Source of the DNA: Candidatus Micrarchaeia archaeon
Lineage (GTDB): Archaea > Micrarchaeota > Micrarchaeia > CAILAH01
DNA: 64,000 nucleotides
Assembly: GCA_038874595.1 (NCBI GenBank)
Contig: JAVZCB010000002.1
Span: forward strand, 135,850 to 199,849
Direction of reading: 5' to 3'
Part shown: in pieces, positions 23,675 through 63,987 of the stretch
Layout of the letters: each line of letters opens with the position of its first letter
How positions within the stretch are numbered: position 1 is the first letter of the stretch
Position numbers and translations under genes: made by a program
Notes under the pieces: generated by a model
Told to the model about the DNA's origin: nothing
Database searches by the model: none
Seen by the model: only the letters and a program-made list of their open reading frames with translations

Positions 23675-23740
23675 GGTATCAACTCCACAATGTGTAATAT
23701 AGTATACAATTATTTTTATAATTTCACAAATAACATAAAT

Positions 23741-26041
23741 GGCATGTGTGACATGTCTATAAAAGGAAATACGCTCGTTTTTGACTGCATTAATTCGCCA
23801 TATGAATTTATGAGCCCGGAATTTATAGCAAACAACATTCGTGCAATGACGACGCTTGTCCGCACAGATTTTGAGAAGATAAGGTATGAGGAGCAGCTGG
23901 TGTTTGAGTTATCGGGTGAAAAAGCAGAGATAATTCTTTCATACATCCGCTTTCTCAAACAGGTGGAAAAGCTCCTTATGAACAAGCAGATATATGGAAG
24001 AGAGGATGATGATTCATATGTGCTTAGGAAAACAACACTTTCAAAAGTTTATGAAGAGCTTATGATGAACCCGCTTTTTGCAGAGCGTACGATAAACGAG
24101 TATAACGAGCCGCAACCTACAAAATCTGCATTTTATGAGGCTTACAAGGCATACAAGGCATGGCTTAAAGGGATACAGCAGAAGCTCCAATCAACAAAAA
24201 TGTACCAGCTTGTAAAGGAAAAGGGAGACATGCGGCAGGCATTTATTTACCTTCTCAACATGAGGGTAATGAAGCTTGTAGATTCCCTCGAACTGCTTCT
24301 TCCGGAGGGTTCCAAACCGCTTGATAAACCAGGGGCAGCTTATGAGCTTGATTATGGATATAAAATTACAATATATGATGTTCCAGGTTCTGAATCCTAC
24401 TGGTATATTATAGATAATCCAATAATTAATTCGCTTCCAGAGGAGGTTATTGTTGAAGCAAGAAAGCTTATTGAAAGAGATATGGGGGCCGTCCGCGGTA
24501 TCCAGGTAAAAGATTACAATCTTTTGTTGGATGAAAAGACGCGCGAGTATCGCAAGTATTTCTTTGAGTGGGCAGATGAGCATAAAGTTCAATTAACGCC
24601 CGAACAGAGCCTCGTCCTAGCACGCGCATGTGCATCGTGGGTTGCAGGCCTAGGCGAACCCATAGAGGCAATATGTCTCGATAAGCGCAACATAACAGAC
24701 ATTTACATTGATTCTGAGAATGCCCCAATATATATTGACCATGCCAATTTTGGGATATGTCATACAGTATATAGGTATAATTCAAAGCTAGTAGACCAGC
24801 TGTTCTTTAACATTTTGGCAACAGACAAGTCAGCAGTTTACGGCCCGCAAAACCCCATAGTTGATGTTGTTATGAAGCGCCTAAATATGCGATGCCACTT
24901 ACAGGGCCCACCAGCAACGTTCGGGGAAAGGCAGGGTGCGCTACGTTTGATGAAACAGACCCCATTCACATACGCGGAATATTTACGCTATCACGCCTTT
25001 TCGGCCTTTTTTGCAGGTTACGATGATACGATGGTTTTTCTTGGAACTTCAGAGGCCGTGCTTGGCTTGAAAGGTGTAGGTAAAACTTCATTTACAGCGG
25101 CAAAGATGATTGCGATTGGAACAAAAACAAGGATAATCCCCATACAAGACATAGAGGAGATACCAGTTGCTGCCTATAGGAAACGCGGGTTTCATATAGG
25201 TGTGATGCGCTCAATGGCTTCAGATAAAGAGGTTGAGCAGGCGACAGCCGGCTCAGCACTCTCACTCGTTGCGCTTACAAGCGCAACACTTCGTATGGGC
25301 GATGCTGCACTCATAATAAACGAGGTCCGCTCACGCGCAGCAATACAAGGTATAATAAATCTTCTGAACACCCAGCCGGGCGTATTTGTCCTTTACAATT
25401 TGCATGCTGAGAGCCTTAAAGATATCCGGGATAGGTTAGAGCTCGTATTCGGTATTCCGGGAGCAAGCATGTTTGCAACTGACAGGTATACTTTCCTGAA
25501 GAAGGTGCGTTTTGGGAGAAAGAGTGCAACATACCGCCTCCTCGGCGCCGCATATGAGAGTAATATAGAAGAGAAGCGGTTTGAGGAGGTTTTTGTATTT
25601 GAAAGGGGGAAAGATATAGAATCATCACAATGCAAAGCGCTGTTTGTTGAAAATCCAGAGCTTAACAAGTGGCTCATTGATGATATAAATCTTGGTGATT
25701 TGCAGAAAAACCTCTCGCTAAAATTTATACCCCCTGCTTTGCAACGGCGCGCAGATGACCGCGGCATTGCACCTGAACAGATGATAATGCAGGCAGCGTT
25801 TAAGGGTAAGGTGTATTCACAAATATATAGGGCGTATGAAAAGTATGGGTATTACGAACTGCTTGAAATGGATTTTGTGCTTAAGGCATCCTCTCTAGCA
25901 AATAAGCTGCTCAAATCGCTTGAAGACGAGGAAGGAAATGTTAATTATGAGGTTGTTGATAGAGAATGGGAGGCAGAATTCCAGCAATTGCTATCTGAAG
26001 AGCTGGAATTTCTTCGCCTTAAGAAAGAGCAGGCGCGGTAA
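23741..26041 (+). CDS. divergent secretion-superfamily ATPase (FlaI/VirB11/TadA class) with long N-terminal extension
   Basis: Ordered motifs: Walker A GLKGVGKTS; Asp box TRIIPIQDIEEI; Walker B DAALIINEVRS (catalytic Glu kept); His box VLYNLHAES. Start set at Met18 so the TATA atttttataattt sits about 25 bp upstream. Confidence 0.5.
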   Translation, partial: GMCDMSIKGNTLVFDCINSPYEFMSPEFIANNIRAMTTLVRTDFEKIRYEEQLVFELSGEKAEIILSYIRFLKQVEKLLMNKQIYGREDDDSYVLRKTTLSKVYEELMMNPLFAERTINEYNEPQPTKSAFYEAYKAYKAWLKGIQQKLQSTKMYQLVKEKGDMRQAFIYLLNMRVMKLVDSLELLLPEGSKPLDKPGAAYELDYGYKITIYDVPGSESYWYIIDNPIINSLPEEVIVEARKLIERDMGAVRGIQVKDYNLLLDEKTREYRKYFFEWADEHKVQLTPEQSLVLARACASWVAGLGEPIEAICLDKRNITDIYIDSENAPIYIDHANFGICHTVYRYNSKLVDQLFFNILATDKSAVYGPQNPIVDVVMKRLNMRCHLQGPPATFGERQGALRLMKQTPFTYAEYLRYHAFSAFFAGYDDTMVFLGTSEAVLGLKGVGKTSFTAAKMIAIGTKTRIIPIQDIEEIPVAAYRKRGFHIGVMRSMASDKEVEQATAGSALSLVALTSATLRMGDAALIINEVRSRAAIQGIINLLNTQPGVFVLYNLHAESLKDIRDRLELVFGIPGASMFATDRYTFLKKVRFGRKSATYRLLGAAYESNIEEKRFEEVFVFERGKDIESSQCKALFVENPELNKWLIDDINLGDLQKNLSLKFIPPALQRRADDRGIAPEQMIMQAAFKGKVYSQIYRAYEKYGYYELLEMDFVLKASSLANKLLKSLEDEEGNVNYEVVDREWEAEFQQLLSEELEFLRLKKEQAR

Positions 26042-27697: not shown

Positions 27698-28756
27698 TCA
27701 GAGCTTATTTTTACATTTTTTCATTATCCAGTTGGCATCAATACACTCGTAATTGATAATAGGTATCTCCTCCAACCCTTCCAAAATATCGGCAAGCCCA
27801 GTGATGCTGTGGTTTAAAAATATCTTTCTTTTATCAAGAGGATTATCAAGGAGCTTTTCTGCCAGTGCGGTAACCTCAGAATCAGTAAGAAGGCTTGTGA
27901 GCAGCACGGGGTCAAACTCCTTGAATGTCTTTTCAATTATTTCATAAATTGCCTCTAAAGTTATGGTTTTAAGCCGTCCATCTATCTTTCCATACACTTT
28001 GTCATACATAAAATCCTTCAGCCTTGCGAACAGTTTCGCTTCCTTTGAATCAGAAAAGGCCACGTATCCCTTTTCTAAGCTTTCATTAACAAGCGCATTT
28101 ATGCAGTTATCAACCCGCTCACGCTGGCAACACCCAAGCGCAACCGCCTCATATGGGAGTTTCTTAAGATAACCCAGTCTTTCAGAATCATTGATATCTG
28201 AGAATACATACGCAAGCTTATCTGCAAGCATCACAACGTTCCATTCCTGCGGGACCTTCTCGCTCACATCCAGCCGCCCACTCCCGCGGGAGTGGTAAAG
28301 GATCCCACCAGCTGTTTCAACACATATATTAGTTCCCTTTCCTGCCCTTTCAACAAGCTCGAGAACAACAATACTATTTTTCTCGTGCCTGAAACCAGGC
28401 CTTATTTTAGCGAGCAGTGCCTCACCAGGATGGCCGTAAGGAGTATGGCCGATATCATGCCCAAGCGCAACAGCTTCACATAAATATTCATTTAACCCCA
28501 GCCGCATTGCGATAAGTTTTGAAATCCACACAACCTCATTTGTATGGGTTAGCCTAGTTCTTATATGAGGATTATCTGGGACAGTGTAAACCTGTGTTTT
28601 GCTTTCAAGCCTTCTTAGAGACTTTGATTGTGCTATTTTATATGAATCAATGAAAAAGGGCGAAAACCTCCCATAAAGCCCCTTTTCATCATCATTCTCG
28701 CAAAACCTCCTTCCATTATCAGGATGCCTTTTAAGCTTCTTCATGCGAAAATTCAA
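27698..28756 (-). CDS. HD-domain dNTP triphosphohydrolase (dGTPase-like)
   Basis: LGHDIGHTPYGHPGE is the dGTPase-family HD signature. Confidence 0.75.
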   Translation of the reverse strand: MNFRMKKLKRHPDNGRRFCENDDEKGLYGRFSPFFIDSYKIAQSKSLRRLESKTQVYTVPDNPHIRTRLTHTNEVVWISKLIAMRLGLNEYLCEAVALGHDIGHTPYGHPGEALLAKIRPGFRHEKNSIVVLELVERAGKGTNICVETAGGILYHSRGSGRLDVSEKVPQEWNVVMLADKLAYVFSDINDSERLGYLKKLPYEAVALGCCQRERVDNCINALVNESLEKGYVAFSDSKEAKLFARLKDFMYDKVYGKIDGRLKTITLEAIYEIIEKTFKEFDPVLLTSLLTDSEVTALAEKLLDNPLDKRKIFLNHSITGLADILEGLEEIPIINYECIDANWIMKKCKNKL

Positions 28757-32707: not shown

Positions 32708-32780
32708 ACATTTGGAAAAATCCTAAATAAGCTTTTTGGAAATTTTTTCATATTATAAACATTTTCTGTCCTTTAATTTT

Positions 32781-35700
32781 ATGCGCGTGCCATTTTTTAT
32801 CTTAGCATTGCTTTTTGCACTTTCTCCATGCTTCGCTTTCAATGCAACTTACCTGGACCCAACAATTGAAAAGCCGTGGGAATTTAACAGCGTCTCGCTA
32901 CCAGATTTTATAACAAACGTGCTTCTCAATAGCCCTGGCAGGACAGACATTGACAATAGCTATATGTTTGCGCTTTCACCGGAAGTATCTTCACAGCTGA
33001 GCGAAGAGATACGCCACGCTAAGAATGCAGACCAGAATCTGAAAACGCTCGGTGAAAGTAGATACCTCCTCAAAGATGCAATCCAGAGTCATCTTAACGA
33101 GACAGTTGGAAAATCTGCCGCAGCAATCGCTTACATGCTTGTTCCTATGCTTGGGATGTTTTTGGCCATTGATGCGGGAACAGGGGCGATATATGAGGTT
33201 TCAGATCTTGGGGCGGAGATGCTATCAATATGTAAAAACCATTATACGGCAGCGGTAGCGGCAGTCGAGGAAAGCGAGCTGGCATACAACGGCCTGCTAT
33301 CAAAGGTTTCTATGGGTTACAGGGAGCTTTGGCTTATGGGTGCTCTCAATCCTTCCTATAAAGGCAGGTATGCCAACGACATCGCACAGCTAGAGTCGCG
33401 CCTTGCATCAATAGATGGCAAGCTGCTGCGTGAGCGGGAAGCCAGCATTAAGAAATATGCACATATGACTGCAAATGACCCGTCAGCTTATCATCCTCTT
33501 GTTTCAGAGTCAGTGTTCCAGGCCAGGTACCTGCTTGATGGGCAGGAATCAGCATTCTCAAAGCTTATTTTTGCATACACAGCCCAGAATTCAATAAAAG
33601 AGGGCCTTATCAAAGAGCGCGAATCAGCAAAGTCTTCCGCAGAAACACGTGCCGGGCAAATATCTGCAGAATACTCTGAGGTAAGTAAGAAATATGGGCA
33701 GATAACAGATGCAGATGTTGTATACTTTGGTATTGCTACGCTGGACACGCTTGATTCACCTTCAACCCATATTTCAAAAGCTTCTGAAAACATTGCAGAA
33801 TACACTTCCATCATCTCAGAAGGTGACAGGGTTTATGCTGCAAAATCATACGGATATGTTATAGACTCAATAAATGCATATTACTTAGCGCTTTCAAAGA
33901 TGGATAGTGCATCATATAACCTGAAAGAGGCGGCGCGGCGCGGAATCCTGATAGTCAGCTCTGCCGAAAATATAACACAAAAAGAGTATATTGCAGCAAC
34001 AGCTGCAGCATCTGCATTTATTCCTAAGACTGCGGCAGAGCAACAGCAGCTCTCTCTTGCTCGTAGCATGATCGAAAAGGCAGAAAAAGAAATGGCTCTT
34101 GCCAGCAATACTCCTGCTGAGAGGATATCACATCTTAAAATTGCGCTGAACAGCCTGCGCCTTGCCCGTGCATATCTTTCTCCAGACGAAGTGTTCCGTG
34201 CAAATGCCAAGGACTCAGCGGTGAGCTCACTTGATTATTTGAAATCGGTGATTGACCGTGCAAAAACAGATTCAATCGATGTTTCTTATGAAGAATCATA
34301 TTATAAAAGCAAAATGCTTGCATTGCAGAGCGGCAATTTAGCCGCTGCAGAAATGGTAAACATCTCACTCACATGCAACAACCTGACGGAACAAATATTT
34401 ATGCGTGGCGCTGCACAGTATTCACATCTTTCATCACGTTATGCCACATTGCTACCGCTGGCAACGTATTTTGAATCGCTTGATGGCAAGCCATTGAAAG
34501 AGTACACATTGCTCAACCCATACATAGACGCCACTGGCACTTTTGATAAATATCTATCGCTCGGGCATTACAAGGAGATAACTGGGCTCATAGCAGGGCT
34601 CGAAGCGCAAATACGTGTAAAAACGAAAGAGCTCATCCGCGAATCGCTTGAAAGAAACGCTGTTGTGAGCGTCAATTATGACAACGCAACGATTGTTTTA
34701 GATGTGCCTATCACGCGCAAGGTTGATGTATCTACATACAGTATTCTGGATTTAGAGTACAAAGGGCCTATTTCAACGAGCATTCGAATTCCCTATGACG
34801 TTTCAAGATCAAAGGCCAAGTATGATACGGCAGGGCTTTCTTATAGTTATACAAACAACCAGCTCAATATTCTTATCAACCAATACACCCCAAATAAGAT
34901 GTATACAATTTCTTTTGAGGACACGCAGGTTCTTGCAAGAACACAATCCGTTAAAAGGGAATCTACCCTTATTACGCCAACGCTGCTCAGGGTAAAAGTT
35001 GAGAGAAAAATAACCTCGCTCGGAACCCCCTATCTTAAAATCCCGGCAAACTATGATTATTCATATGTGTTGTATTATGATGGAGAGTACGTTGGGAGTT
35101 TTAATTATGATGCGGAAATAGCACGACCGATACCTGCAGGGGAGCATATATTAACAATGGTATATTCAATTGAAAACCCTTTTGTTGCTACATTGAACAG
35201 CGTATCTAGCACAAAAACCAGCACAACAATGTCTGTTATCATTAAAAACACAGTCCCATTTGATATTAGCGACGCTATGATAAGCTATGACATTCCGGCA
35301 GTATCCCCATCTTCTGTATTAGTATCATCTTCGGATTGTGAAATAAAATCAACTGCCAGCACACATTTTCCAACATACACGCGTCTTACCATAAACGTGA
35401 AGGCATTTTCAGCCAGCTCAAAATGTACTTTTGACATCCATGCAAGCACACCTATAAGCAAGGAGTATATTGAGGAGGAAATTGTACGCTTATCTAAAGA
35501 CAATACTGCATTGCAGAGTAAAGAGGTGGAAAACCACCTTAACAAGGCACGGAACGCATTCGAGACTGGAAAGTATGAAGATGCTCTTAAAGCAATCTCC
35601 GATGCGGACAAGACGCTGGTTGAGGCAAAGCGAGCAACCGAGCAAGCCAATCGCCAGGGAGAAGAGATAGAAAGGTTATCAAAACAAACCGCCTCGGTGT

Positions 35701-36650
35701 TAGCCAACTTATCAAATATGAATGATGTGGAAGTCCAAAAAGCGCTTGCCAAAATCAAGTCCTACTACGATTCCGCAAATGCTGAGGCCGAGCCTGCAAA
35801 GAAGCTTACATTCCTGCGAAAAGCAAACGATGAGGTTCTGGCTTTGAACACGCTTGTATACAGTAAGATATCCTCCATTTCAGAACGCCTTAATTCAGTA
35901 AAGCAGAAATGGCTTTTACTTATAGATAAGGGATACTCAAAAAGCATGCCGCCAGAGGTTGCGGAAGTAGAGTCCGTGCTTGCGATGGCATCTTCTTCCC
36001 CAAATCCAGATTCAAGCACGTTTTTGCAGCTTGGTAAGGCCTCCTCAATTCTAGATTTGCTTGAAATATCAGTAAAGAACGCAGACAAAAATGCATCTGA
36101 ATGGGAATCTTCACTTAAAGAGAGGTTTAAGTCATCAGTTACCATGTTAAAGGCCGCAATAGCCCAGCTCACAAAAGCGTGCGGTACAAAGTGCCCCCAA
36201 GATATGGTTTCTTATTCCCAGTCACTATTATCCTTGAATCCACAAACACCGTCTGAATATTCTATTTCGATAGATACAATAAACAAAACGCTTTCCAGCA
36301 TTAACACCTATATATCTACAGAGCGCTCAGCCGCAAACACGGCAATATCAGAGCTTAAATCAATATCCTTAACAATATCGGACCCGCGCGTGAAACAGGT
36401 GCTAACACCAAAAATCCAGGAGATTGAGTCTATGTATGTTGCGGGAGAATATTCTCGAGCAAAAGAGGCAGCAATTGCAGTCAAAGAAAGCCTCACAGGC
36501 ACACCACAGAAACCAGCAGGTGATTATACCCTTATCCTTGCTGGACTTGCAGTAATTGCAATCTCCTTTATAATATTAAAGATGCGTGAGCGCGGCGCAA
36601 AATCAAATGAAGCAATTCAAGAGGCAAAACAGCTAAAACGCGAAAAATAA
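32781..36650 (+). CDS. very large (about 1290 aa) Ala/Ser-rich coiled-coil surface protein with signal peptide and C-terminal TM anchor
   Basis: Signal MRVPFFILALLFALSPCFA. Long helical low-complexity body. C-terminal TM LILAGLAVIAISFIIL followed by basic residues. Confidence 0.6.
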   Translation: MRVPFFILALLFALSPCFAFNATYLDPTIEKPWEFNSVSLPDFITNVLLNSPGRTDIDNSYMFALSPEVSSQLSEEIRHAKNADQNLKTLGESRYLLKDAIQSHLNETVGKSAAAIAYMLVPMLGMFLAIDAGTGAIYEVSDLGAEMLSICKNHYTAAVAAVEESELAYNGLLSKVSMGYRELWLMGALNPSYKGRYANDIAQLESRLASIDGKLLREREASIKKYAHMTANDPSAYHPLVSESVFQARYLLDGQESAFSKLIFAYTAQNSIKEGLIKERESAKSSAETRAGQISAEYSEVSKKYGQITDADVVYFGIATLDTLDSPSTHISKASENIAEYTSIISEGDRVYAAKSYGYVIDSINAYYLALSKMDSASYNLKEAARRGILIVSSAENITQKEYIAATAAASAFIPKTAAEQQQLSLARSMIEKAEKEMALASNTPAERISHLKIALNSLRLARAYLSPDEVFRANAKDSAVSSLDYLKSVIDRAKTDSIDVSYEESYYKSKMLALQSGNLAAAEMVNISLTCNNLTEQIFMRGAAQYSHLSSRYATLLPLATYFESLDGKPLKEYTLLNPYIDATGTFDKYLSLGHYKEITGLIAGLEAQIRVKTKELIRESLERNAVVSVNYDNATIVLDVPITRKVDVSTYSILDLEYKGPISTSIRIPYDVSRSKAKYDTAGLSYSYTNNQLNILINQYTPNKMYTISFEDTQVLARTQSVKRESTLITPTLLRVKVERKITSLGTPYLKIPANYDYSYVLYYDGEYVGSFNYDAEIARPIPAGEHILTMVYSIENPFVATLNSVSSTKTSTTMSVIIKNTVPFDISDAMISYDIPAVSPSSVLVSSSDCEIKSTASTHFPTYTRLTINVKAFSASSKCTFDIHASTPISKEYIEEEIVRLSKDNTALQSKEVENHLNKARNAFETGKYEDALKAISDADKTLVEAKRATEQANRQGEEIERLSKQTASVLANLSNMNDVEVQKALAKIKSYYDSANAEAEPAKKLTFLRKANDEVLALNTLVYSKISSISERLNSVKQKWLLLIDKGYSKSMPPEVAEVESVLAMASSSPNPDSSTFLQLGKASSILDLLEISVKNADKNASEWESSLKERFKSSVTMLKAAIAQLTKACGTKCPQDMVSYSQSLLSLNPQTPSEYSISIDTINKTLSSINTYISTERSAANTAISELKSISLTISDPRVKQVLTPKIQEIESMYVAGEYSRAKEAAIAVKESLTGTPQKPAGDYTLILAGLAVIAISFIILKMRERGAKSNEAIQEAKQLKREK

Positions 36651-54484: not shown

Positions 54485-55054
54485 ATGCGGCGCGGCTTTG
54501 TTTTTATGCTTGATGCTTTTATTGCGTTAATAGTGGTGATAGCATTCGTAAGCTCACTTAACCAATTCTCGCGCGATTACTCATACATCCAAGATGAGAC
54601 TTTGTACTCGTATGGCAGGGGCATGATGGATATACTCTTGAGCAAGCAGGTCAAGGTTGAGATATCTAAGACCGAGCCAAAGGAATATCAATACATCCAG
54701 CTTATTCATGCGCTCTCAACAGAGGCAGGAAAAAAGGAGATGGATGCGATAGACAAGCTTGTCCCGAAACAGTATTCATATAAGGTAGAATATTACAGCA
54801 GCAAGGAGAACAGGTGGGTTCCGCTTTACACACCCGCCTCAAGGGATAAGAAAGACATAAAGAAGGCAGTTGCCATTGTATCCACAATCCCGGTTATAGT
54901 GAAGAATGAGAATTATACCGCTCCGTACACATACGGGGACTTTTGCGGGGAGCCGGGTGGCATTAACAGGTGCCTTACACCTGAAGAGCTCTACAGCCCT
55001 GATGAGTTCGGCTCGTTTGACAGGGCATTTGTCCGTGTGGTGATAGGCATATGA
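54485..55054 (+). CDS. pilin-like protein with class-III signal peptide (MRRG|F)
   Basis: Short basic N-terminus plus hydrophobic helix FVFMLDAFIALIVVIAFV. First gene of a five-gene overlapping operon. Confidence 0.5.
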   Translation: MRRGFVFMLDAFIALIVVIAFVSSLNQFSRDYSYIQDETLYSYGRGMMDILLSKQVKVEISKTEPKEYQYIQLIHALSTEAGKKEMDAIDKLVPKQYSYKVEYYSSKENRWVPLYTPASRDKKDIKKAVAIVSTIPVIVKNENYTAPYTYGDFCGEPGGINRCLTPEELYSPDEFGSFDRAFVRVVIGI

Positions 55055-56661
55055 TGCGCAGGGGATTTGCACTCACACTTTCAATAATAATACTGGTATT
55101 TTTCCTCACGCTTATACTTTCAGTTGAGTCGCAGCGTATCATCATTGAGGAGCAGACACGTGCCAGCCACGCGAGGATGCGTGCTGTAACATCGCTCGTT
55201 TCAGATATGGATTCGCCCGCACTGGATTATGCAGTCTCCAAGATGGCGAAGCGCGCACTTTATGATGTCACGATGGATGTAATTGCTAATAACAAGCCCG
55301 CGCGCAATGCAAGGCAGGAGGTCTGCAACAGGTTCACTGAAATGTATTTAGGGTATCTCAAATCCATGCAGCAGCGCGCGAACGATTCCGGCCTTGCCCT
55401 TTTATATGAGGATAAGCCGCCTGCCCTTATATGTGATATTAAGCTCGTGGACGGGTTCAAGGCGCAGGTTTCAATAGGCACAAAGGTGACTATAAAAGGG
55501 AAGGATATATACGTAACAAAAGTGCTTTCGCACACAGAAAACTTTACGATAAATGGGATTTATGACCCGTATATTGCACTGAAGAGTTATGACCCGAACA
55601 TGGGCACAAAATACAATATGGTCCTTATTCCAATAATCCCGTCAAAAATAAGCACTGATGAATTTAAGGCAGAGCCAGCACAGCTTTCCTCTGTAGGATA
55701 CGGGAAGGGCTGGGGGTATGGCACAGTGATATCTTCAGATGAGGCACTTTCAGCTGCGGACTCGGCGCTTGGCACCAGGATACTTCTAATTACAAATGAG
55801 GCGGAATTTTCAAGATGGAAAGACCCGCGCAACCTTTCAAAGTTTGCAGGCGTAATCCTGGTGAAGACGAACCTCGCAACAACCCCAACCACATCTGAGA
55901 ATGTGAGGATAGCAGGGACCGATGATATGAAACAGCCCTGCTTTGTTAATGCAACAAAATACGTGTGGGTGGAAAATACTGCACCGTGCATCTCTTGTGG
56001 TGAATACTCAAAGCTCGTAATATTGCAAAGGTCTGTTGACTCTTGTGAGCCGCAGCTCTCAGGGGTGTATTACAGGGAAGGCAACACGTACTATACATAC
56101 GTGCCATCCTCCTCTGTAACTGACCCGAACAATATCCAGGACAAAAAGAATATCGTGCTTAATGATGTTCCTTTCATAGCGGTGAGCGGGGTAAGTGTTA
56201 GTGCTGGCCAGAGAGTGCTCATAAGCAGCACGATTGAGCAGGACCTTGATGATACCATTGCGGGCAAATACCCACCAGTGCACGAGGATGTTCACATATA
56301 CGATATCGAGAAACAGCGTGCGGCAGTACTGTGTGGCAATTACTTCTTCTGGAAAGGCGCAAACAGCGGGAACAGCTGGGGACCGGACATCTTCAGCAGG
56401 CTTGAAGGCACAAACTCAAATGACAAGTATGGCATAGAAACATTTGTGATAGGGCCGTGGGCCAACGCAGATTACTCTAAGGTTGACCACAATTACTACG
56501 CGCGCGTTGGAGGGCATTATGCTAAGGGTATGCCTGGATGCATTAACCCGAATATGTGTAACAGGCCGCTGAAAGAGCTCCAGATAGGGCACTTTATAGT
56601 AAGCACACAACGTGATTCGGATTACGGTATGGATGATAAAGGCATTTATATAAGCAAGTGA
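55051..56661 (+). CDS. large pilin-like/pilus-associated protein with class-III signal peptide (MMRRG|F)
   Basis: N-terminal signal as above. 536 aa extracellular body. ATGA overlap with the upstream gene. Confidence 0.45.
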   Translation: MMRRGFALTLSIIILVFFLTLILSVESQRIIIEEQTRASHARMRAVTSLVSDMDSPALDYAVSKMAKRALYDVTMDVIANNKPARNARQEVCNRFTEMYLGYLKSMQQRANDSGLALLYEDKPPALICDIKLVDGFKAQVSIGTKVTIKGKDIYVTKVLSHTENFTINGIYDPYIALKSYDPNMGTKYNMVLIPIIPSKISTDEFKAEPAQLSSVGYGKGWGYGTVISSDEALSAADSALGTRILLITNEAEFSRWKDPRNLSKFAGVILVKTNLATTPTTSENVRIAGTDDMKQPCFVNATKYVWVENTAPCISCGEYSKLVILQRSVDSCEPQLSGVYYREGNTYYTYVPSSSVTDPNNIQDKKNIVLNDVPFIAVSGVSVSAGQRVLISSTIEQDLDDTIAGKYPPVHEDVHIYDIEKQRAAVLCGNYFFWKGANSGNSWGPDIFSRLEGTNSNDKYGIETFVIGPWANADYSKVDHNYYARVGGHYAKGMPGCINPNMCNRPLKELQIGHFIVSTQRDSDYGMDDKGIYISK

Positions 56662-56698
56662 TACTATGAGGCATTCTGATAACCTGCAAAAATACCTG

Positions 56699-57127
56699 AT
56701 GCATTACAGTTCAAGCAGGCGTGGGCAGGTGGCAGTTGAGTTCCTTGCAGTGGTAGCGTTTTTCATTCTCATAAGCGTGCCTTTGTTTATGTACTTCTAC
56801 ACGGCTGCTCCGCAGAAGGAGTACTATGCAAGCCTGTCCCAGGCCGAGGCGGCGGCAGACGAGCTAGTAAAGTATGGCGAGCTTGTCGGCACACAGGGCA
56901 ACGGCACCACGATTTCGCGCGTTATTGTTTTTCCCAAGTATGCTACGCAGGTGTCTTTCAACGCATCGCACGTTGCGATACATGTTGAGTATTCTGACCT
57001 TAAGACGGATGTCGTGCGGACCGGGCCGGTGAGGTTTTCACAAAGTACTTATATGCTGCCCGCCGGTGGCAGTTACGTTTTCATATTTAAGAACATAAAC
57101 GGTAATGTGTATGTCACTCAAGGGTAA
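56699..57127 (+). CDS. archaeal type IV pilin (DUF361-like, RRGQ|VAVEFL)
   Basis: Canonical +GQ.A.EF class-III signal. Start moved to Met12. Confidence 0.6.
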   Translation: MHYSSSRRGQVAVEFLAVVAFFILISVPLFMYFYTAAPQKEYYASLSQAEAAADELVKYGELVGTQGNGTTISRVIVFPKYATQVSFNASHVAIHVEYSDLKTDVVRTGPVRFSQSTYMLPAGGSYVFIFKNINGNVYVTQG

Positions 57128-57572
57128 AAGCATAACAAGTTGGATACGCCCATTACGGGCAAACAAAAAGCCGACAGGCACGCGTGGACAGACGGCTGTA
57201 GAGTATCTCACTTACTTTGCGTTTTTCCTGCTTGTTGCAGCAGTTTTCTCGGTGTATGTGTTCTCGCAGTCAGGTGAAGAGCTTAACAAGCGTTCCCAGG
57301 AGAGGTTCAAGTCGGCACTGTTTTATGTCTCGCAGGGTGTCCGTGATGCAAACAACCTTGCAAAATATGCTGACACAATGAGCGTCAATATTACACTGCC
57401 AGTTATAACAAAAGGCAGTGGTATTAGTATCTCAGGTGATAGTGCTACTGGGGTGATTGCAGGCAACACAACAACCGAAAGAGGGCCGGTATACTACTAC
57501 GTGCAAATAGGCAGGTTTGAGTATGAGCCGGAGCAGAAGCCAGGTGATAATTATGTTACTATCTCTAAGTAA
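57105..57572 (+). CDS. archaeal type IV pilin (DUF361-like, TRGQ|TAVEYL)
   Basis: Class-III signal motif. The pre-sequence is long, so the true start may be non-ATG. Confidence 0.55.
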   Translation: MCMSLKGKSITSWIRPLRANKKPTGTRGQTAVEYLTYFAFFLLVAAVFSVYVFSQSGEELNKRSQERFKSALFYVSQGVRDANNLAKYADTMSVNITLPVITKGSGISISGDSATGVIAGNTTTERGPVYYYVQIGRFEYEPEQKPGDNYVTISK

Positions 57573-58008
57573 AAGAGGGCAGGTGCTCTCCTACGACGCG
57601 ATTGGAGGTATTGTAATCTTTCTTGTTGCGGTAGGGATACTTGTTACCTATTGGTCTTCACTGAGTGCATCATTCTCTGATGCGGATGCAATTATGGTGC
57701 TTGAATCTAACACGGCCCTTGATAATCTAATGACCACGGATATGCTTATGGAGAACAGCTATATATTGAACACTACAAAGTTTGAAAGTTGCAGTTTTAG
57801 CCCGCAGGAGGCAGGCATATTCCACGAGTATTACTTACAGGTGATTGACTCAAGTGGCAGGCCCCTGAAAACAAAAGATAATAAGGATGGCTGTGGTATT
57901 GCGCCGGGACATGACAAGAAGGTTGCGGTATCAGAACGGCTTGCTTATATATCACAGGGCGGTAAGGAATACCCTATAAAGGTCGTGCTTAAGGTTTATA
58001 CAAAATAA
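57553..58008 (+). CDS. archaeal type IV pilin-like (KRGQ|VLSYDAIGG)
   Basis: Class-III-like signal. Start moved to MLLSLSKRGQ. Confidence 0.5.
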   Translation: MLLSLSKRGQVLSYDAIGGIVIFLVAVGILVTYWSSLSASFSDADAIMVLESNTALDNLMTTDMLMENSYILNTTKFESCSFSPQEAGIFHEYYLQVIDSSGRPLKTKDNKDGCGIAPGHDKKVAVSERLAYISQGGKEYPIKVVLKVYTK

Positions 58009-58061: not shown

Positions 58062-58388
58062 TTACCTTGCGACTTTTGCTTTTGTGGCCTTAGTCTCTGT
58101 TGTTTTGCGCGAGGCCTTGCTCTCTATCTTATTCCTATTCCTTCCCTTCTGCTGTATTTCACCAACATATTCTATAAGCTCGTTTGTGCTGGCAGCAGCT
58201 TCCGGGTCATCACCCGCACCCGTAGCTTTTGCATACGAGTCAAACTTTTCCTTATCCTGCTGCTTGAGCCGTGCAAAAGATACCAGGAAGGATGATGGCA
58301 CATCATCAACCTTCTCCCTTACCTTCCCGCTTCTTCCTGTAAGCCTGGACATAACCCTCTTGAATATCCTGAAAAGGTCGGCTGCCAT
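58062..58388 (-). CDS. small basic hypothetical protein
   Basis: ORF with a K/R-rich C-terminus. Preferred over the antisense ORF 58084-58416. Confidence 0.35.
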   Translation of the reverse strand: MAADLFRIFKRVMSRLTGRSGKVREKVDDVPSSFLVSFARLKQQDKEKFDSYAKATGAGDDPEAAASTNELIEYVGEIQQKGRNRNKIESKASRKTTETKATKAKVAR

Positions 58389-58405: not shown

Positions 58406-59317
58406 TTATTTTTTAAGCCTTAACAGGATCAAAACAAGGTTTGCAAGCACCAGACCGGTAATGAGCGGGAATGCAAAAGCAACAGATAAAACCGGAAGCA
58501 CATTTGTAATGTTTGATATCATCAGGTATTTTGAGCCGAAGATGCCGAGTGCAAGCACGAGCGCAGCCACAAAATACCTATTTATTTTGCTCCCCTCAAT
58601 AATAAAGTATAGGGAAAGCAGTGCAATGATATACATCACAACAAACGCGAGTAGCGTGTTTAGCGCAATCAAGTACCCATAATCGCTTAGATAAAACCCG
58701 CCAGTGTAGCTTGCATAAAGCACGAACAGCGCAACAGCACACATCACAAGTACGATGAGTGGGCTCTCCCTAACAAAGCTAATTACGCTTCTCATATCAC
58801 CGCTGCTTGACGCAGCGCCGGGCGCAATTATAAGTGAGGCAAGCACCAGCAGCACATCCCGCGCGTTATCAAGTGCACAAACATCCCTGAGCACGGCAAC
58901 GTACTTTCCTATAATATCAGGTTCTGAGATGAATTCTATGATATCCTGCCCGCTAGCAAGCGCATACAATACAATAAACAGCAATGGCAGTATAAATGTA
59001 GGCCCAAAGCCAGCAACGAATACAGATACACCCCCAAAGATATTCTTCTCATATTTCACAGAAACATTGCCCTTTTCCTCGCGCAAATCAACTCCTATAA
59101 CGTTGCTACCGCTTAATAAAGCAGGGATTATATGGCCAACAACCTCGTGCAGAAATACTGTAGGCACGCTCAGCACACTGCCAATGTACTTTATGTCTTT
59201 TAGCCTTACAAATAAGCCCCTATAAAGAAAAACCATTAGTACGTGCTGGACAAAAGTGGCAAAAACAAAAACAAGCGCAAAAGCACAAATGCTTTGTAAG
59301 GCAGCATCAGCAATCAT
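58406..59317 (-). CDS. multi-TM protein with intramembrane HExxH motif (M50/DUF3267-like putative metalloprotease)
   Basis: FLHEVVGHIIPALLSG lies within a hydrophobic region. At least six TM helices. Confidence 0.4.
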   Translation of the reverse strand: MIADAALQSICAFALVFVFATFVQHVLMVFLYRGLFVRLKDIKYIGSVLSVPTVFLHEVVGHIIPALLSGSNVIGVDLREEKGNVSVKYEKNIFGGVSVFVAGFGPTFILPLLFIVLYALASGQDIIEFISEPDIIGKYVAVLRDVCALDNARDVLLVLASLIIAPGAASSSGDMRSVISFVRESPLIVLVMCAVALFVLYASYTGGFYLSDYGYLIALNTLLAFVVMYIIALLSLYFIIEGSKINRYFVAALVLALGIFGSKYLMISNITNVLPVLSVAFAFPLITGLVLANLVLILLRLKK

Positions 59318-59324
59318 TGTATAT

Positions 59325-59576
59325 TTACTGGTTGTATTTGCTCATAAGCCTTTTCTTCTTTTTCTCAAAGATTTTTCTGTGCTTGCCGCAGCTTATGCAG
59401 TAGTAAACCTTTCTCATATCCGTATAAGTAACATCATCACCAGTCCTGAGCTCAGTAGAGTATCTCACAAACCTGTTATCCTGCACTGCTTTGCCTCTTG
59501 GAACGCTCCTTCCACACGAACTGCACGTAACAAGTGCTTCCTTTCCCCTGCTTTTCTTGCCTTTTGACATTAACAT
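59325..59576 (-). CDS. rps26e: ribosomal protein eS26
   Basis: VTCSSCGRSVPRGKAV ... YYCISCGKH matches the S26e C..CGR.VPK.KA...Y.C.SC.H pattern. 83 aa. Confidence 0.75.
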   Translation of the reverse strand: MLMSKGKKSRGKEALVTCSSCGRSVPRGKAVQDNRFVRYSTELRTGDDVTYTDMRKVYYCISCGKHRKIFEKKKKRLMSKYNQ

Positions 59577-59582
59577 AACCTC

Positions 59583-60308
59583 CTATTTAACCCTAATACC
59601 GTTCAGCAGGTATATTTCCGCTGACGATTTTATAAATATATTTTCATTAAGCAGCGGGCTGCGCAGCCTTTCACTGCCGTCCTGGCTGCGCCACCCCTTC
59701 CAGGGCCCGAACGCAGGCACGCATATAATCCTTATTTTCTTCCTGATTCCGGCCTCTTTCCCGTAACACTCTTCAAGTGCGCTCGTGTTGAGCTGCCCTA
59801 TAACCCATACCTTTTCAGAATGTTTGATTTCACTTCCAAACAGCAATTGGGGGTGGGAGTGCCCCATCATGATTGTACCGCATCTTAGCAGCTCGGCATC
59901 AGGCCACGCGTGGCCGTGCATAACACCTATTTTTGGTTTTGCATCTCTCCCAAGCCCAATTTTCCCATCATCATAAATTATAGCACCCCCTGCACCGTGA
60001 ACAGTGCAATATTCACTGTATTTCTCAATCCCGCCATCATGGTTGCCTTTTGTTATGTGCAAAGAGTACTCCTTCCCAATCTCGCGAATAAACTTCCCGG
60101 CATCCCCTTCTGTTTCTGTGACACTTGCCTTTACATCACCTAATATGAGCAGATTTTTCCGCTTTTCTTGCTCCATAATGTTCCTTACAATTTCTGCGGT
60201 CGCTTTCCAGCCCACACCATCTTTTTTCCCAATGTGCAGGTCGCTTATGATTACCCATTTTCCGTGCACGGCGGCTGCAGTATTATGCAAGAATTTAACC
60301 ATCGTCAT
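59583..60308 (-). CDS. calcineurin-like metallophosphoesterase
   Basis: DLHIG, GDVKA, GNHD and GHSHP motifs. Confidence 0.7.
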   Translation of the reverse strand: MTMVKFLHNTAAAVHGKWVIISDLHIGKKDGVGWKATAEIVRNIMEQEKRKNLLILGDVKASVTETEGDAGKFIREIGKEYSLHITKGNHDGGIEKYSEYCTVHGAGGAIIYDDGKIGLGRDAKPKIGVMHGHAWPDAELLRCGTIMMGHSHPQLLFGSEIKHSEKVWVIGQLNTSALEECYGKEAGIRKKIRIICVPAFGPWKGWRSQDGSERLRSPLLNENIFIKSSAEIYLLNGIRVK

Positions 60309-60352
60309 CTATTGAGGAAAACATTTTTATATATCTATTTCCCTATTTATCC

Positions 60353-61861
60353 ATGTCTTATTCCCATAAGAAAGACACAGATGCGATAAAGAGAAAGTTA
60401 AGGCAAATGCGGGACAAGGCACAGAAAGACCTTGAAAGGCTAAAGGTTCCGCCCGATGTCATCTACCATAATCAGCAGCTGTTTTATACGATTGCTGCAA
60501 GCCTGAACGGTATCACAAAAGCAGCACGTGCAGATATCAATCCCACGGACCTGCTCTGGCTCTCATTATACCACGAAAACCTGAGCTATTCTGCATTGCC
60601 TTCCGAAATTAAGGAAACAATAGGCGGCTTGTTCAGGAGATTCATTGAGCTGAAGCACATTGATATGTCAAAGAAAGAAGTTTGGACACCTTATAATAAC
60701 CTTGTTGATGAATGCCCGGCATTGGCAGTTTTCCGTACAATAGACCTGGCGCACTTCCCGATGGATTATAACACGCTTGTCAGGTCATTCTTATTTAAAA
60801 AAGATACTGTAGAGTATGCAGTACGCAATATTGCAGAGTCAATGCTTTATGTTTATGTGCCGTTTGCTGATATCTTGGGCATTCTTGATGTATACTCCTC
60901 CTTGCTTGATAAATCTACGAGCATACTTTATCCAGATCTTTATCGTGGGGTATATGCAAAACTAAAAGAGCTGCAGGATGAGAATGAGCACATTCTTAAA
61001 AACTTTGGCAACCGGCTCGAGTATGATATTTTGGAAGCTGAAATGGAAGACATCCATTTTGCGAATTTTAGTGATAATTCATTAATAAAGGGCCGCATTA
61101 AAACAACCGGCTCTACAGTGCTTAAGCTAATCCGTAAGAACTACCCGATAGAAAAGATGATGGAGTTTGAAGACCTGGTGGCATTCACAGTACTGACAGA
61201 AACAGAACAGGATGCATACAAGTTTGTGGAATTCCTCAAAAACAAGTATAAGATACCGGAGGGCCATTTTGATGATTATATAAGGTCACCGCGCGGCCAG
61301 ACGCAATATCAATCCCTCCACCAAGGTGTCCCTTTTGAGGTTGAGCGGTTTGGTGAGAAGAAGATAAGATTTATTGAGGTCCAGATACGCACTCCTGAAA
61401 TGCAGGAAAAATGTGAGCGTGGTGACCAAGCACATGCACTTTTTAAGCAGAGAAAGATTGACAAGGAGAAGCTCCTGCTGATGTTACAGTATTCCACAAC
61501 ACTCAGGAATGCTTCTACGGAAGAGGTGCAGATGCTGGCTCTCAATTTGAGGTCTGAAAGGATAACCGTGCTTGCAACGGTGACTCCAGATAGTGAGGTA
61601 ATGATTGTTGACCTCCCGGAGAATTCTTGTGTGTATGACCTGATATGCAAGGTTTCAGACCCGTTCTATGAGCATAAGGTGGTTTCAGCTACAACCAACA
61701 GGATGTTTTCGCCATACGAATCTCTTATACCAGGGGCAGGGTACTTTATAATGAAGACCGGGGAAAGGATGCGGTCCTCAGAAATCAGAAGAATTATTCC
61801 GATATGCTCTCTTGAGACAAGAATGCAATTACAATGGATGCTTGAAAACAAAAAGAAGTAG
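60353..61861 (+). CDS. RelA/SpoT-homolog (p)ppGpp synthetase-like protein: degenerate N-terminal region, RSH synthetase domain, TGS-like C-terminus
   Basis: GRIKTTGSTVLKLIRK, DYIRSPRGQTQYQSLHQGV and IEVQIRTPEMQEKCERGDQAHALFK are collinear with RelA/SpoT synthetase motifs. The C-terminal beta-grasp-like segment is TGS-like. Confidence 0.65.
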   Translation: MSYSHKKDTDAIKRKLRQMRDKAQKDLERLKVPPDVIYHNQQLFYTIAASLNGITKAARADINPTDLLWLSLYHENLSYSALPSEIKETIGGLFRRFIELKHIDMSKKEVWTPYNNLVDECPALAVFRTIDLAHFPMDYNTLVRSFLFKKDTVEYAVRNIAESMLYVYVPFADILGILDVYSSLLDKSTSILYPDLYRGVYAKLKELQDENEHILKNFGNRLEYDILEAEMEDIHFANFSDNSLIKGRIKTTGSTVLKLIRKNYPIEKMMEFEDLVAFTVLTETEQDAYKFVEFLKNKYKIPEGHFDDYIRSPRGQTQYQSLHQGVPFEVERFGEKKIRFIEVQIRTPEMQEKCERGDQAHALFKQRKIDKEKLLLMLQYSTTLRNASTEEVQMLALNLRSERITVLATVTPDSEVMIVDLPENSCVYDLICKVSDPFYEHKVVSATTNRMFSPYESLIPGAGYFIMKTGERMRSSEIRRIIPICSLETRMQLQWMLENKKK

Positions 61862-61896: not shown

Positions 61897-63987
61897 TTAC
61901 ACCCTCTCCCCATACTCATCCAAGAAGTGCTTGTATTCTTGAAGCATCTCAATAGTTAGTGATGGCTTTCTCCTGCTTATTACTTTTAATATATCTTCCG
62001 TCTTGAGCTTTACATCCCCTTTGCCAGATATTCCCTCTCGCACAAGGCTAAATTTAGATTCCTGGCAGATGCTTGCTATGTCTGCACCTGTAAACCCTTC
62101 CGTGGCAGCTGCAAGCGCAGCATAATTTATATCTTCTTTTGGTACCTTTGCCAGGAATCTCTTAAACATCGCCTCCCGCTGCTCTTTGAGTGGGGGCGGT
62201 ATGAAGACAATCTTATCGAGCCTTCCTGGCCTGAGCATTGCCTTATCAACCATCTCGGGCTTATTTGTTGCTCCAATCAGGACGACATTTTTTAGCTCTT
62301 TCATCCCATCCATCTCCTGGAGCAATTGTGTGACAACATCCTCAACATACTTTGAGCTGTATAACTCACGTGACGGCGCAACACTCTCAATCTCATCTAT
62401 GAACACAATCGCGGGCGGGTTCTCGCGTGCCCTGTTGAATGTCTCCCTTATCATTGCAACTGCACCTTCATATCCCCTTTTAAGGAGGTCTGCACCGCTA
62501 AGTGCAAACACGTTTACATTCATCTCATTTGCCGCCGCTTTCACAATAAGGGTCTTCCCGCACCCAGGCGGCCCGAACATAAGCACACCTTTGCTTGGCT
62601 TCACATCATATTTTTCCAGGAGTTCCTCGTGCAGTAACGGGATCTCAACCGCCTCTTTGAGCATTTGCCTGACATCATCAAGCCCGATTACATCATCCCA
62701 CGTGACCTTCTTCTCCTTCTCCTTTTTCTCTTCGTCAACCCTTCTTTCATAATCAAGCCTGAATCTCTCGTAATCATCTAGCATAGAGAGTGTTGTGCTC
62801 GGCTTGATTGATTTAAGCACTTTAAGGAAGTCATCCATCATTACAGGCTCAAGCTTCTCCTTCTCAGCAGCTCTCTTTGCCGCAAGGCGGACAGCCTCTT
62901 TGCACAGGTTTGCAAGGTCAGCCCCCGAGAACCTCTCAGTTTTCTTTGCTAGTTCTTTCAGGTTAACATCCTTGCTTAGAGGTATCCCGCGCAGCTGCAC
63001 CTCAAGCACCTTCAGCCTCCCTTCCATATCAGGTAGCGGCATATAAATTATCTTGTCAAGCCGCCCAGGCCTTATGAGTGCCTTGTCAAGCATATGTGGG
63101 ACGTTTGTAGCTCCAACAACAAGCACATTGTTATCGCTTGTGAGGCCATCCATCTCCTCAAGCATCGTGCTTAGTACCCTCGCAGCTGCCTCATCACCTC
63201 GCGCATACTCCCTGCTTTTCCCTATTGCATCTATCTCATCAAAGAACAGGACTGCGGGCGCATTTTTCCGCGCAATGCTAAATATCTCTGAAACGTTCTT
63301 CTCCGACTCGCCGAAATACTGTGATAAGAGCTGTGATGCCTTTACATAGTAGAACCCAACTTCAAGCTCCTTGGCGAGGGCGCGCATAAGCATCGTCTTC
63401 CCTGTCCCCGGCGGCCCAAACAGCAATATCCCTTTTGGCGGTTTAATATTATATGCAACACTGATATCTTTTCTTTGAAGGGGCATTAGTATTGCATCTC
63501 TAAGCTCTTTCTTGACACTTTCATAATTGCCTATATCACTTAGTTTTGTTGTTGATGCAAGCCCAAGGTCCTGCACACCAAACTTGCTAAACTTCTGCTC
63601 TTTCTCCTTGAGCACCGCGCCGGTCTGCCCGGCAATACTGAATTTCTTAATGTCAAGGTAGTATACGAGCGCAGTGGTAAGTGCAACGTATATTATAATC
63701 TCAGGATGAAAAATGCTTCCTGTGGCAACGGCAAGGAAATAGTGCAGTGGTATGAAAAGCCAGAACACCACAGTCGCAGCAGTCTGCCTGTATCTTCCGC
63801 GCAGGATACCTGGCAGCATTGATGCAAAGTACATTATTGCACCAATAGCAGCTATTTCTATAAGACCAACATCACCGAAAAACAACACTAAGGTGGTGCC
63901 TGTTGTGAGACCGAGCAGCGGATTGATATATGTAAAGGCGTCAGGCCCAAACATCCCACTGAACGCCTCCCCGACAGCACCAGCCAT
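61897..63987 (-). CDS. membrane-anchored tandem-AAA ATPase (Cdc48/VCP-like D1-D2)
   Basis: About 115-aa N-terminal region with 3-4 TM helices. Then two AAA modules, each with GPPGTGKT/GPPGCGKT Walker A and DEID/DEIE Walker B. Confidence 0.85.
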   Translation of the reverse strand: MAGAVGEAFSGMFGPDAFTYINPLLGLTTGTTLVLFFGDVGLIEIAAIGAIMYFASMLPGILRGRYRQTAATVVFWLFIPLHYFLAVATGSIFHPEIIIYVALTTALVYYLDIKKFSIAGQTGAVLKEKEQKFSKFGVQDLGLASTTKLSDIGNYESVKKELRDAILMPLQRKDISVAYNIKPPKGILLFGPPGTGKTMLMRALAKELEVGFYYVKASQLLSQYFGESEKNVSEIFSIARKNAPAVLFFDEIDAIGKSREYARGDEAAARVLSTMLEEMDGLTSDNNVLVVGATNVPHMLDKALIRPGRLDKIIYMPLPDMEGRLKVLEVQLRGIPLSKDVNLKELAKKTERFSGADLANLCKEAVRLAAKRAAEKEKLEPVMMDDFLKVLKSIKPSTTLSMLDDYERFRLDYERRVDEEKKEKEKKVTWDDVIGLDDVRQMLKEAVEIPLLHEELLEKYDVKPSKGVLMFGPPGCGKTLIVKAAANEMNVNVFALSGADLLKRGYEGAVAMIRETFNRARENPPAIVFIDEIESVAPSRELYSSKYVEDVVTQLLQEMDGMKELKNVVLIGATNKPEMVDKAMLRPGRLDKIVFIPPPLKEQREAMFKRFLAKVPKEDINYAALAAATEGFTGADIASICQESKFSLVREGISGKGDVKLKTEDILKVISRRKPSLTIEMLQEYKHFLDEYGERV

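Follow-up and report, generated by a model that had tools for sequence, protein, structure and literature searches.

Bifunctional Rel proteins (structures 6yxa and 1vj7) have an intact HD site with which they hydrolyse (p)ppGpp, and the 744-aa RelA of E. coli (5iqr, 5kpv) carries an inactive, degenerate hydrolase-like N-terminus followed by an active-looking SYNTH (synthetase) domain, a TGS domain, and ribosome-docking helical, ZFD and RRM/ACT domains. A 2011 census of these RelA/SpoT homologs (RSHs) recorded no long forms among archaea, a few of which had small RSHs only (PMC3153485). A 2021 survey of the DPANN archaea described RelA/SpoT, inferred to be of bacterial origin, from Diapherotrites, Woesearchaeota, Pacearchaeota and Nanoarchaeota, and did not list Micrarchaeota (PMC8407392). 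Here we describe a divergent RSH gene in a 64,000-nucleotide stretch (hereafter the window) of the genome of a Candidatus Micrarchaeia archaeon (assembly GCA_038874595.1, contig JAVZCB010000002.1, positions 135,850 to 199,849). The 502-aa product is identical to an NCBI entry named 'hypothetical protein QXS93_02230', from a metagenome-assembled genome (MAG) of Candidatus Micrarchaeia archaeon. We regard it as probable, with room for doubt, that the protein is a lineage-specific, vertically inherited RSH member which would work as a synthetase-only alarmone synthetase and would be regulated unlike RelA. The gene and its parts, in window coordinates, are as follows.

60353..61861, + strand: complete gene of the divergent RSH protein, from the list of open reading frames (ORFs); ATG start, 502 aa, stop codon included
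60353..60817, + strand: all-helical N-terminal domain (aa 1–155), probably a strongly degenerate HD domain (pseudo-hydrolase)
60818..61057, + strand: helical region (aa 156–235), matching the C-terminal stretch of the hydrolase domain of RSHs together with the helices joining it to the synthetase
61091..61453, + strand: SYNTH nucleotide pyrophosphokinase domain (aa 247–367), PF04607 at E = 3.8e-20, catalytic set kept
61553..61858, + strand: divergent TGS-like beta-grasp and short helical tail (aa 401–502), from profile-profile comparison, phmmer and the predicted model

Membership of the RSH superfamily is carried by the synthetase domain. Pfam RelA_SpoT (PF04607) matches aa 247–367 with 72.7 bits (E = 3.8e-20; gathering cutoff 27); it is the sole significant Pfam domain of the protein, and it is matched by 13/13 members of the family, which share 29–50% identity with the query and form the conservation alignment used throughout. 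The long-RSH model TIGR00691 (spoT_relA) aligns aa 158–449 to its positions 131–402 (114.4 bits, E = 4.9e-33), below its cutoff of 499.2 bits, and the RelQ/RelP model NF053588 (GTPPhKinYjbM) gives 35.5 bits, under its cutoff of 320, on a protein that has three domains. By phmmer, the best solved relative is B. subtilis Rel (6yxa, E = 2e-12, aa 156–449 on Rel 159–433), and the next are E. coli RelA and S. equisimilis Rel. The original prediction, made from the DNA letters before any database search, had called the product an RSH-superfamily synthetase-domain protein in an archaeal gene context. Both parts of that call hold: the best matches are to RSHs, Rel and RelA are the closest entries in the Protein Data Bank, and the gene sits in a Micrarchaeia genome amid housekeeping neighbours.

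The resemblance extends over the whole length of the protein. A global hhalign comparison with a profile of 237 RSH sequences gave E = 1.9e-65 over 456 aligned columns and ended at profile position 521 of 742; the protein terminates about 30 residues past the TGS domain in this alignment to the canonical profile and thus has neither a ZFD nor an ACT/RRM domain. In the AlphaFold2 model (predicted local distance difference test score, pLDDT, 78.5), about 12 helices at the N-terminus are followed by the synthetase core, of alpha/beta type, and by a beta-rich C-terminal domain. When this model was compared with solved structures by Foldseek, the top match was again B. subtilis Rel 6yxa (E = 3e-15, 520 columns), and further matches were the ribosome-bound RelA (5iqr), SpoT and crystal structures of the Rel N-terminal region (among them 1vj7, a fragment of S. 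equisimilis Rel), the last over about 360 columns with target template-modelling scores of 0.58–0.63; E-values of the top matches ranged from 3e-15 to 1e-10. Bifunctional Rel is the best counterpart in both sequence and predicted fold, the fold agreeing across the HD-like, SYN and TGS regions, the difference being that the archaeal protein is without the HD site by which Rel degrades the alarmone.

In architecture, the nearest forms are the short RSHs of Patescibacteria (the candidate phyla radiation; P0028, P0012, P0013 and P0023), of about 484–508 aa, which have the same length, domain order and catalytic residues and likewise end after the TGS domain. In MAFFT and global profile-profile alignments, the archaeal family runs collinearly along the entire length of the 484–503-aa proteins of HD-SYN-TGS type, which are common among Patescibacteria. 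Identity between the two groups is only 21–24%, and the Patescibacteria forms keep the HP...HDxxED...ADRLHN motifs, the Arg of D-x4-R, the TGS His and Pfam HD_4/TGS matches, whereas the Micrarchaeota family has none of these. The gene probably derives from the short HD-SYN-TGS form of the 'long' RSHs. Other DPANN RSHs (PMC8407392), such as P0061 from Pacearchaeota, are likewise of presumed bacterial origin, but they are caught by standard annotation (HD_4, TGS and ACT in P0061), unlike the much more divergent Micrarchaeota proteins, which are annotated as 'hypothetical'. The small alarmone synthetases (SASs) RelP and RelQ and the toxSAS proteins FaRel2 and CapRel have the SYNTH fold and the catalytic residues in common with the family; they differ from it in being single-domain proteins of about 200–250 aa, tetrameric or paired with an antitoxin, and in all keeping the second adenine-stacking Arg discussed below. 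Judged by these comparisons, the family is a new, highly divergent subfamily of the known RSH superfamily: it has the PF04607 match and the catalytic residues of the superfamily, and it falls outside the canonical long RSHs, the SASs and the toxSASs.

The catalytic set of the synthetase is written plainly in the SYNTH domain. The literal motifs are R248-I-K-T-T-G-S254-T-V-L-K258, EDLVAFTVL (aa 273–281), the G-loop motif FDDYIRSPRGQTQYQSLH (aa 306–323) and IEVQIRTPEMQEKCERGDQAHALFK (aa 341–365); the motif strings quoted in the original prediction named the right motifs, but in the form of a consensus and not as they read in the protein. Residues R248, K250, K258, D274, D308, Y319, H323, E342, Q344 and H361 are invariant in 13/13 members, and the S254 position is Ser in 11 and Ala in two. 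In S. aureus RelP the matching residues are the triphosphate ligands R78/K80/S84/K88 and the Mg2+ ligands D107/E174 (PMC5794853), and the FaRel2 counterparts are R64/K66/S70/K74, D90 and E145/Q147 (PMC11782079). D274 is equivalent to D264 of B. subtilis Rel, of which the D264G variant is synthetase-inactive (PMC7797070). A loss of the catalytic Asp or Glu, which the original prediction had said to look for, was not seen; D274 and E342 are both kept and invariant. In 12/13 members, an acidic residue (D or E) occupies the third place in the EXDD/RXKD motif, as in E. coli RelA, a state that has been tied to monofunctional RelA and to a preference for guanine nucleotides (PMC3153485). Finally, SYN is the best-conserved domain, with a mean pairwise identity of 0.44 against 0.26–0.36 in the other regions, a pattern that purifying selection on catalysis would produce.

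The N-terminal half tells a different story. Pfam HD and HD_4 matched none of the 13 proteins of the family when the threshold was relaxed to E ≤ 1, and neither did Pfam TGS, so the calls of both flanking domains rest on profile-profile comparison and fold evidence. HMMER-detectable homology to long RSHs begins at aa 156–161, and several alignments made with the family profile reach collinearly to profile positions 42–85. Past aa 156–161, Y168, P170 and L192-Y193-P194 show the conservation seen in canonical RSHs. In the global hhalign comparison, H39 falls on the His of 'HP', H74-E75 on the HD dyad (the query reads Y73-H74-E75 there) and D131 on the Asp of ADRLHN. H39, H74 and D131 are invariant in 13/13, and position 75 is Glu in 11/13, the other two having a gap in place of the Glu and Asn after H74. 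Neither the ED pair of HDxxED nor the RLHN motif of ADRLHN was found in the 13-member alignment. A second model of aa 1–235, built from a family-only alignment (pLDDT 75), shows the same helices; its Foldseek matches are individually insignificant (best E = 0.25) and are headed by the small alarmone hydrolase (SAH) RelH, with Rel N-terminal structures and other SAHs among the further weak matches. The collinearity and this weak fold evidence point to a strongly decayed HD fold that would be devoid of hydrolase chemistry, i.e., a RelA-like pseudo-hydrolase. The original prediction had proposed the same. Its observation that the HD dyad is missing stands, the other hydrolase motifs being absent as well, and its RelA-like degenerate HD fold is what the collinearity would suggest, not something demonstrated.

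The positions of H39, H74, E75 and D131 raise the question of whether the protein might be a bifunctional synthetase-hydrolase, in which these residues still bind metal in the N-terminal domain and the alarmone is hydrolysed there. The global alignment sets the three invariant residues, H39, H74 and D131, on three of the four metal ligands of the HD domain. The fourth, however, is at the variable position 75, with two members having no Glu; the family has neither the ED pair nor the RLHN motif; no HD model matches; and the N-terminal alignment taken by itself is non-significant. We find a bifunctional enzyme hardly credible on this evidence.

The C-terminal domain has kept the TGS fold. Local hhalign places aa 398–502 collinearly on the TGS region of the 237-sequence RSH profile (probability 91%, E = 1e-6), the phmmer alignment runs through the TGS domain of B. 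subtilis Rel to Rel residue 433, and the predicted model, which superimposes on 6yxa, has strands at 403–472. All of this agrees with the TGS-like beta-grasp that the original prediction had placed after the synthetase. In RelA and Rel, the TGS residue H432 or H420, respectively, stacks on the 3′-terminal CCA of deacylated tRNA in the A site, and its substitution abolishes activation (PMC7797070). It is by this His that E. coli RelA reads the tRNA end, and the archaeal protein is without it: S435 stands opposite B. subtilis Rel H420 in the phmmer alignment, and the His is present in 0/13 family members (S, A, V, D or P instead), compared with 219/237 canonical RSHs. With the TGS His lost and with neither ZFD nor RRM, RelA-style ribosomal sensing of uncharged tRNA is unlikely.

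These features can be joined into a scheme of how the protein might work. The retained R248, K250, S254 and K258 would bind the ATP triphosphate, D274 and E342 would hold Mg2+, and Y319, H323 and Q344 would position the acceptor. The reaction so predicted is the transfer of the beta,gamma-pyrophosphate of ATP to the 3′-OH of a purine nucleotide, most likely yielding a (p)ppGpp-type alarmone. Having lost the N-terminal hydrolase motifs, the enzyme would be synthetase-only, as RelA is, and the acidic EXDD/RXKD residue is also RelA-like. Because the TGS domain has no CCA-stacking His and the ribosome-docking ZFD and RRM are missing, its regulation would have to differ from that of the bacterial stringent factor, and the pseudo-HD and TGS domains are probably intramolecular regulators or partner-binding modules. 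An alarmone so made would need to be degraded by a non-RSH enzyme.

Several points weigh against a synthetase-only alarmone synthetase. First, the second Arg that, together with the first, stacks on the adenine of ATP (R112 in SaRelP, PMC5794853; R95 in FaRel2, PMC11782079) has been replaced. At position 279, five residues past the catalytic Asp, the family has Thr in 11/13 members, the query among them, and Met in 2/13, and Arg in none; the equivalent residue is Arg in 230/237 canonical RSHs. The altered DxxGxR motif (DLVAFTVL) had been spotted in the original prediction, and what the alignment adds is that this change of the D-x4-R Arg to Thr is, as far as the family alignment goes, a fixed family trait and not a lesion of a single gene. 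The loss of one half of the adenine sandwich in 13/13 members could weaken or alter donor binding. Second, the G-loop is remodelled: in the subclade of the window protein, PRGQTQY replaces PKxNGY, and most family members have a one-residue insertion in the loop and T(Q/K/G)Y in place of NGY. Third, the homology of the N-terminal region to HD domains is statistically unsupported, hhalign of aa 1–155 against RSH HD domains being non-significant with both a 6-sequence and a 237-sequence profile. Fourth, no second RSH, RSH-type HD hydrolase or dedicated hydrolase was found within the 64-kb window.

Regarding the last point, it has been noted that archaeal and eukaryotic carriers of SASs often have no recognizable SAH, and that non-homologous hydrolases may substitute (PMC3153485). 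The window codes for a dGTP-triphosphohydrolase-like HD protein (27698–28756, − strand; NF002327 at E = 1e-59, below the cutoff) and for a fusion of DUF357 with a NUDIX domain (10928–11650, − strand). Both would be generic candidates for non-RSH alarmone hydrolysis, and nothing ties them to the RSH gene.

The first two points bear directly on what the enzyme might use and make. Since both the donor pocket and the G-loop have been remodelled, the most interesting alternative is an active pyrophosphokinase of changed specificity, which would produce (pp)pApp, pyrophosphorylate RNA 3′ ends or draw on a donor other than ATP. Among RSH enzymes, adenine nucleotides and the CCA end of tRNA are known acceptors (PMC11782079), and the replacement of the adenine-stacking Arg by Thr or Met throughout the family, like the G-loop insertion, is of the kind that such a change might leave. 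Other features speak against it. E-x-Q is invariant, and its Glu confers adenosine specificity on the donor site in FaRel2 (PMC11782079); the base-stacking Tyr of the G-loop is invariant as well, and the first adenine-stacking Arg, R248, is kept. In addition, the known adenine- or tRNA-directed RSHs are toxins accompanied by antitoxins, and there is no antitoxin at the RSH loci. We consider changed specificity unlikely but worth keeping in view.

The same substitutions, taken together with the loss of the HD catalytic set and of the TGS His, could also be those of a catalytically dead pseudoenzyme, in which the RSH scaffold has been retained to serve structure or regulation, for instance by binding a nucleotide or a partner protein. 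The host is a DPANN symbiont with a reduced genome, and no alarmones have been detected in archaea so far, both of which would suit this idea. A dead enzyme, however, would be expected to drift in its SYN domain as the HD part did, and SYN is instead the best-conserved region; the residues that bind Mg2+, triphosphate and acceptor have been conserved at 29–50% identity, all being invariant save for the two members with Ala at S254. We thus hold a pseudoenzyme to be distinctly improbable and retain the alarmone synthetase as the preferred reading.

How the gene came to its present place can be read from its distribution and its neighbours. Among 5.8 billion proteins, the only close relatives are P0002 (49% identity), P0003 (47%) and P0004 (33%); after a break, bacterial long RSHs follow at E of about 1e-14. 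When 1.84 billion cluster representatives were searched exhaustively by profile, 10 clusters came out at E ≤ 1e-30, with a clear gap between 1e-72 and 1e-29. The family is therefore small, about 10 clusters at 50% identity; all its named members are from Micrarchaeota, and among the GTDB species genomes it was found only in MAGs of Micrarchaeota/Micrarchaeia (L004–L007). The nearest matches outside the family are mixed, most of them bearing no taxon label, and comprise long RSHs from bacteria, the short forms of Patescibacteria and a degenerate protein from Asgardarchaeia. The last of these, P0129 (MHA1859554.1, Candidatus Asgardarchaeia archaeon), is a 471-aa 'hypothetical protein' and ranks first after the family among full-length matches, as a much weaker one; it aligns with the family profile along nearly all of its sequence (E = 2e-29), likewise shows Thr for the adenine-stacking Arg (DVIAYTIV) and, furthermore, has E-x-H for E-x-Q (VEIHIRS). 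By these sequence features, P0129 may represent a second degenerate archaeal RSH lineage.

The gene is found at one and the same site. Eight genomes (the window; the contigs of P0002, P0003, P0004, P0122 and P0125; and loci L005 and L007) have in common the gene order DNA ligase, pilin-like cluster, membrane protein, ribosomal protein S26e and metallophosphoesterase (both on the − strand), RSH (+) and membrane-anchored Cdc48-like AAA ATPase (−). In a ninth, L074, the RSH gene is again divergent from the metallophosphoesterase-S26e pair and the other flank is deoxyhypusine synthase. The metallophosphoesterase thus adjoins the RSH gene in 9/9 RSH-bearing genomes. The features on this side of the gene are as follows.

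59583..60308, − strand: metallophosphoesterase, archaeal SbcD/Mre11-related and TIGR00024-like (PF00149, E = 4e-8; TIGR00024, E = 3.9e-12)
60309..60352, no strand: divergent intergenic region of 44 bp, with the AT-rich TATA-like element TTTTTATATAT at 60324–60334

The centre of the TATA-like element lies upstream of both ATG codons, by about 24 nt for the RSH gene and about 21 nt for the metallophosphoesterase gene. Such spacing would fit leaderless, divergently transcribed genes, and the element is a putative promoter.

So constant a neighbour invites the idea of a dedicated partner, for instance a hydrolase of the alarmone. As a control, we looked at distant Micrarchaeota, which keep the metallophosphoesterase-S26e pair and have no RSH gene beside it. 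The pair lies at 59325–60308 (− strand) in the window, at 6001–6983 in L072, where it comes after RpoE′ (Rpb7) and Spt4, and at 4888–6822 in L073. As the pair exists without the RSH gene and the TIGR00024-like phosphoesterase family is widespread in archaea, the metallophosphoesterase was rejected as a dedicated partner or hydrolase, and a functional link is retained only as an idea of low probability. The adjacency is best read as marking the insertion site of the RSH gene and is by itself no evidence of a functional link. The conserved position, together with the pair without RSH elsewhere, indicates that the RSH gene was acquired once, beside the pre-existing pair, in the ancestor of a clade of Micrarchaeia and was then inherited vertically.

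The composition of the gene is in line with this. The window has a GC content of 0.42 both around the RSH gene and elsewhere, with no compositional anomaly. A gene that stands at the same locus in nine genomes at 29–50% protein identity and is of ordinary composition implies that any transfer was ancient and was followed by vertical descent; the framing of the gene in the original prediction as a member of a group 'usually horizontally acquired' therefore fits poorly. Other genes of the window are archaeal housekeeping genes, namely those for ribosomal protein S26e, a Cdc48-type double-AAA ATPase, an ATP-dependent DNA ligase, AlaRS, diphthamide synthase, RNA 3′-phosphate cyclase, a class I tRNA synthetase of Trp/Tyr type (PF00579), fibrillarin, Cdc6/Orc1, a KaiC-like ATPase, GatD and a topoisomerase.

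This neighbourhood also bears on whether the protein might be a toxSAS-type toxin or an anti-virus defence effector. PADLOC gave a weak match over the SYN domain to the candidate system PDC-S33 (E = 1.8e-9), but the match to the long-RSH model is far stronger (TIGR00691, E = 4.9e-33). There is no adjoining small ORF, no fused pseudo-ZFD antitoxin and no PADLOC match to CapRel, and the housekeeping context is fixed across the nine genomes, unlike that of mobile defence islands. The original prediction had argued against a toxSAS from the lack of a small antitoxin-like ORF next to the gene, and the ORF list, the synteny and PADLOC all bear this out. With no antitoxin-like ORF and a conserved housekeeping neighbourhood, the toxin or defence reading was rejected as very improbable.

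Some other genes of the window deserve a record of their own. The Cdc48-like double-AAA ATPase gene (61897–63987, − strand) is a 696-aa ORF that starts 13 bases from the window edge and is probably cut, its homologues in the syntenic loci being 898–918 aa long with a long multi-pass membrane N-terminus (e.g., L005 7711–10422); a membrane-anchored Cdc48-type ATPase is unusual in itself. On the other side, a 303-aa polytopic membrane protein (58406–59317, − strand), conserved in synteny and matched by neither Pfam nor NCBIfam, carries the conserved motif HExxGH (FLHEVVGHIIPA; in the L005 homologue, IIHEFFGHLIPA) and could be an unclassified membrane metalloprotease. Next to it, a 108-aa protein with a lysine/arginine-rich C-terminus (58062–58388, − strand) matches no family, and a gene for a protein of 107–110 aa stands at the same position in all syntenic loci. 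Downstream of the DNA ligase gene, all syntenic loci share five consecutive genes (54485–58008, + strand, in the window), of which at least three (56666–57127, 57105–57572 and 57517–58008) have starts resembling class III signal peptides (RGQVAVEF, RGQTAVEY and KRGQVLSYDA), and the sole Pfam signal in the cluster is a weak match to DUF7287; by its starts, the cluster looks like an archaeal type IV pilin-like cluster. At E ≤ 1e-6, Pfam matches neither of two large ORFs, one at 32736–36650 (+ strand, 1304 aa) and the other at 23690–26041 (+ strand, 783 aa).

Coming back to the RSH protein, the advance made here is incremental, in that another subfamily is added to a superfamily already holding dozens. 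Through a long divergence, an RSH-derived synthetase has been retained at one locus in a clade of Micrarchaeia, with the catalytic core strongly constrained while the hydrolase and tRNA-sensing features decayed. We also entertain, as a doubtful but attractive proposal, that the protein is an archaeal pyrophosphokinase whose remodelled donor pocket and G-loop serve a non-classical substrate or product, whose activator is something other than deacylated tRNA, and whose product is perhaps removed by the adjacent metallophosphoesterase or another non-RSH hydrolase. If true, an altered product and a non-tRNA activation would mean an alarmone-like signalling native to an archaeal lineage. Furthermore, the family offers a natural experiment on what the second adenine-stacking Arg contributes to RSH catalysis. 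The gene provides a concrete, clonable protein for testing whether alarmones are made by some archaea and in what way an RSH can be regulated without the bacterial ribosome interface.

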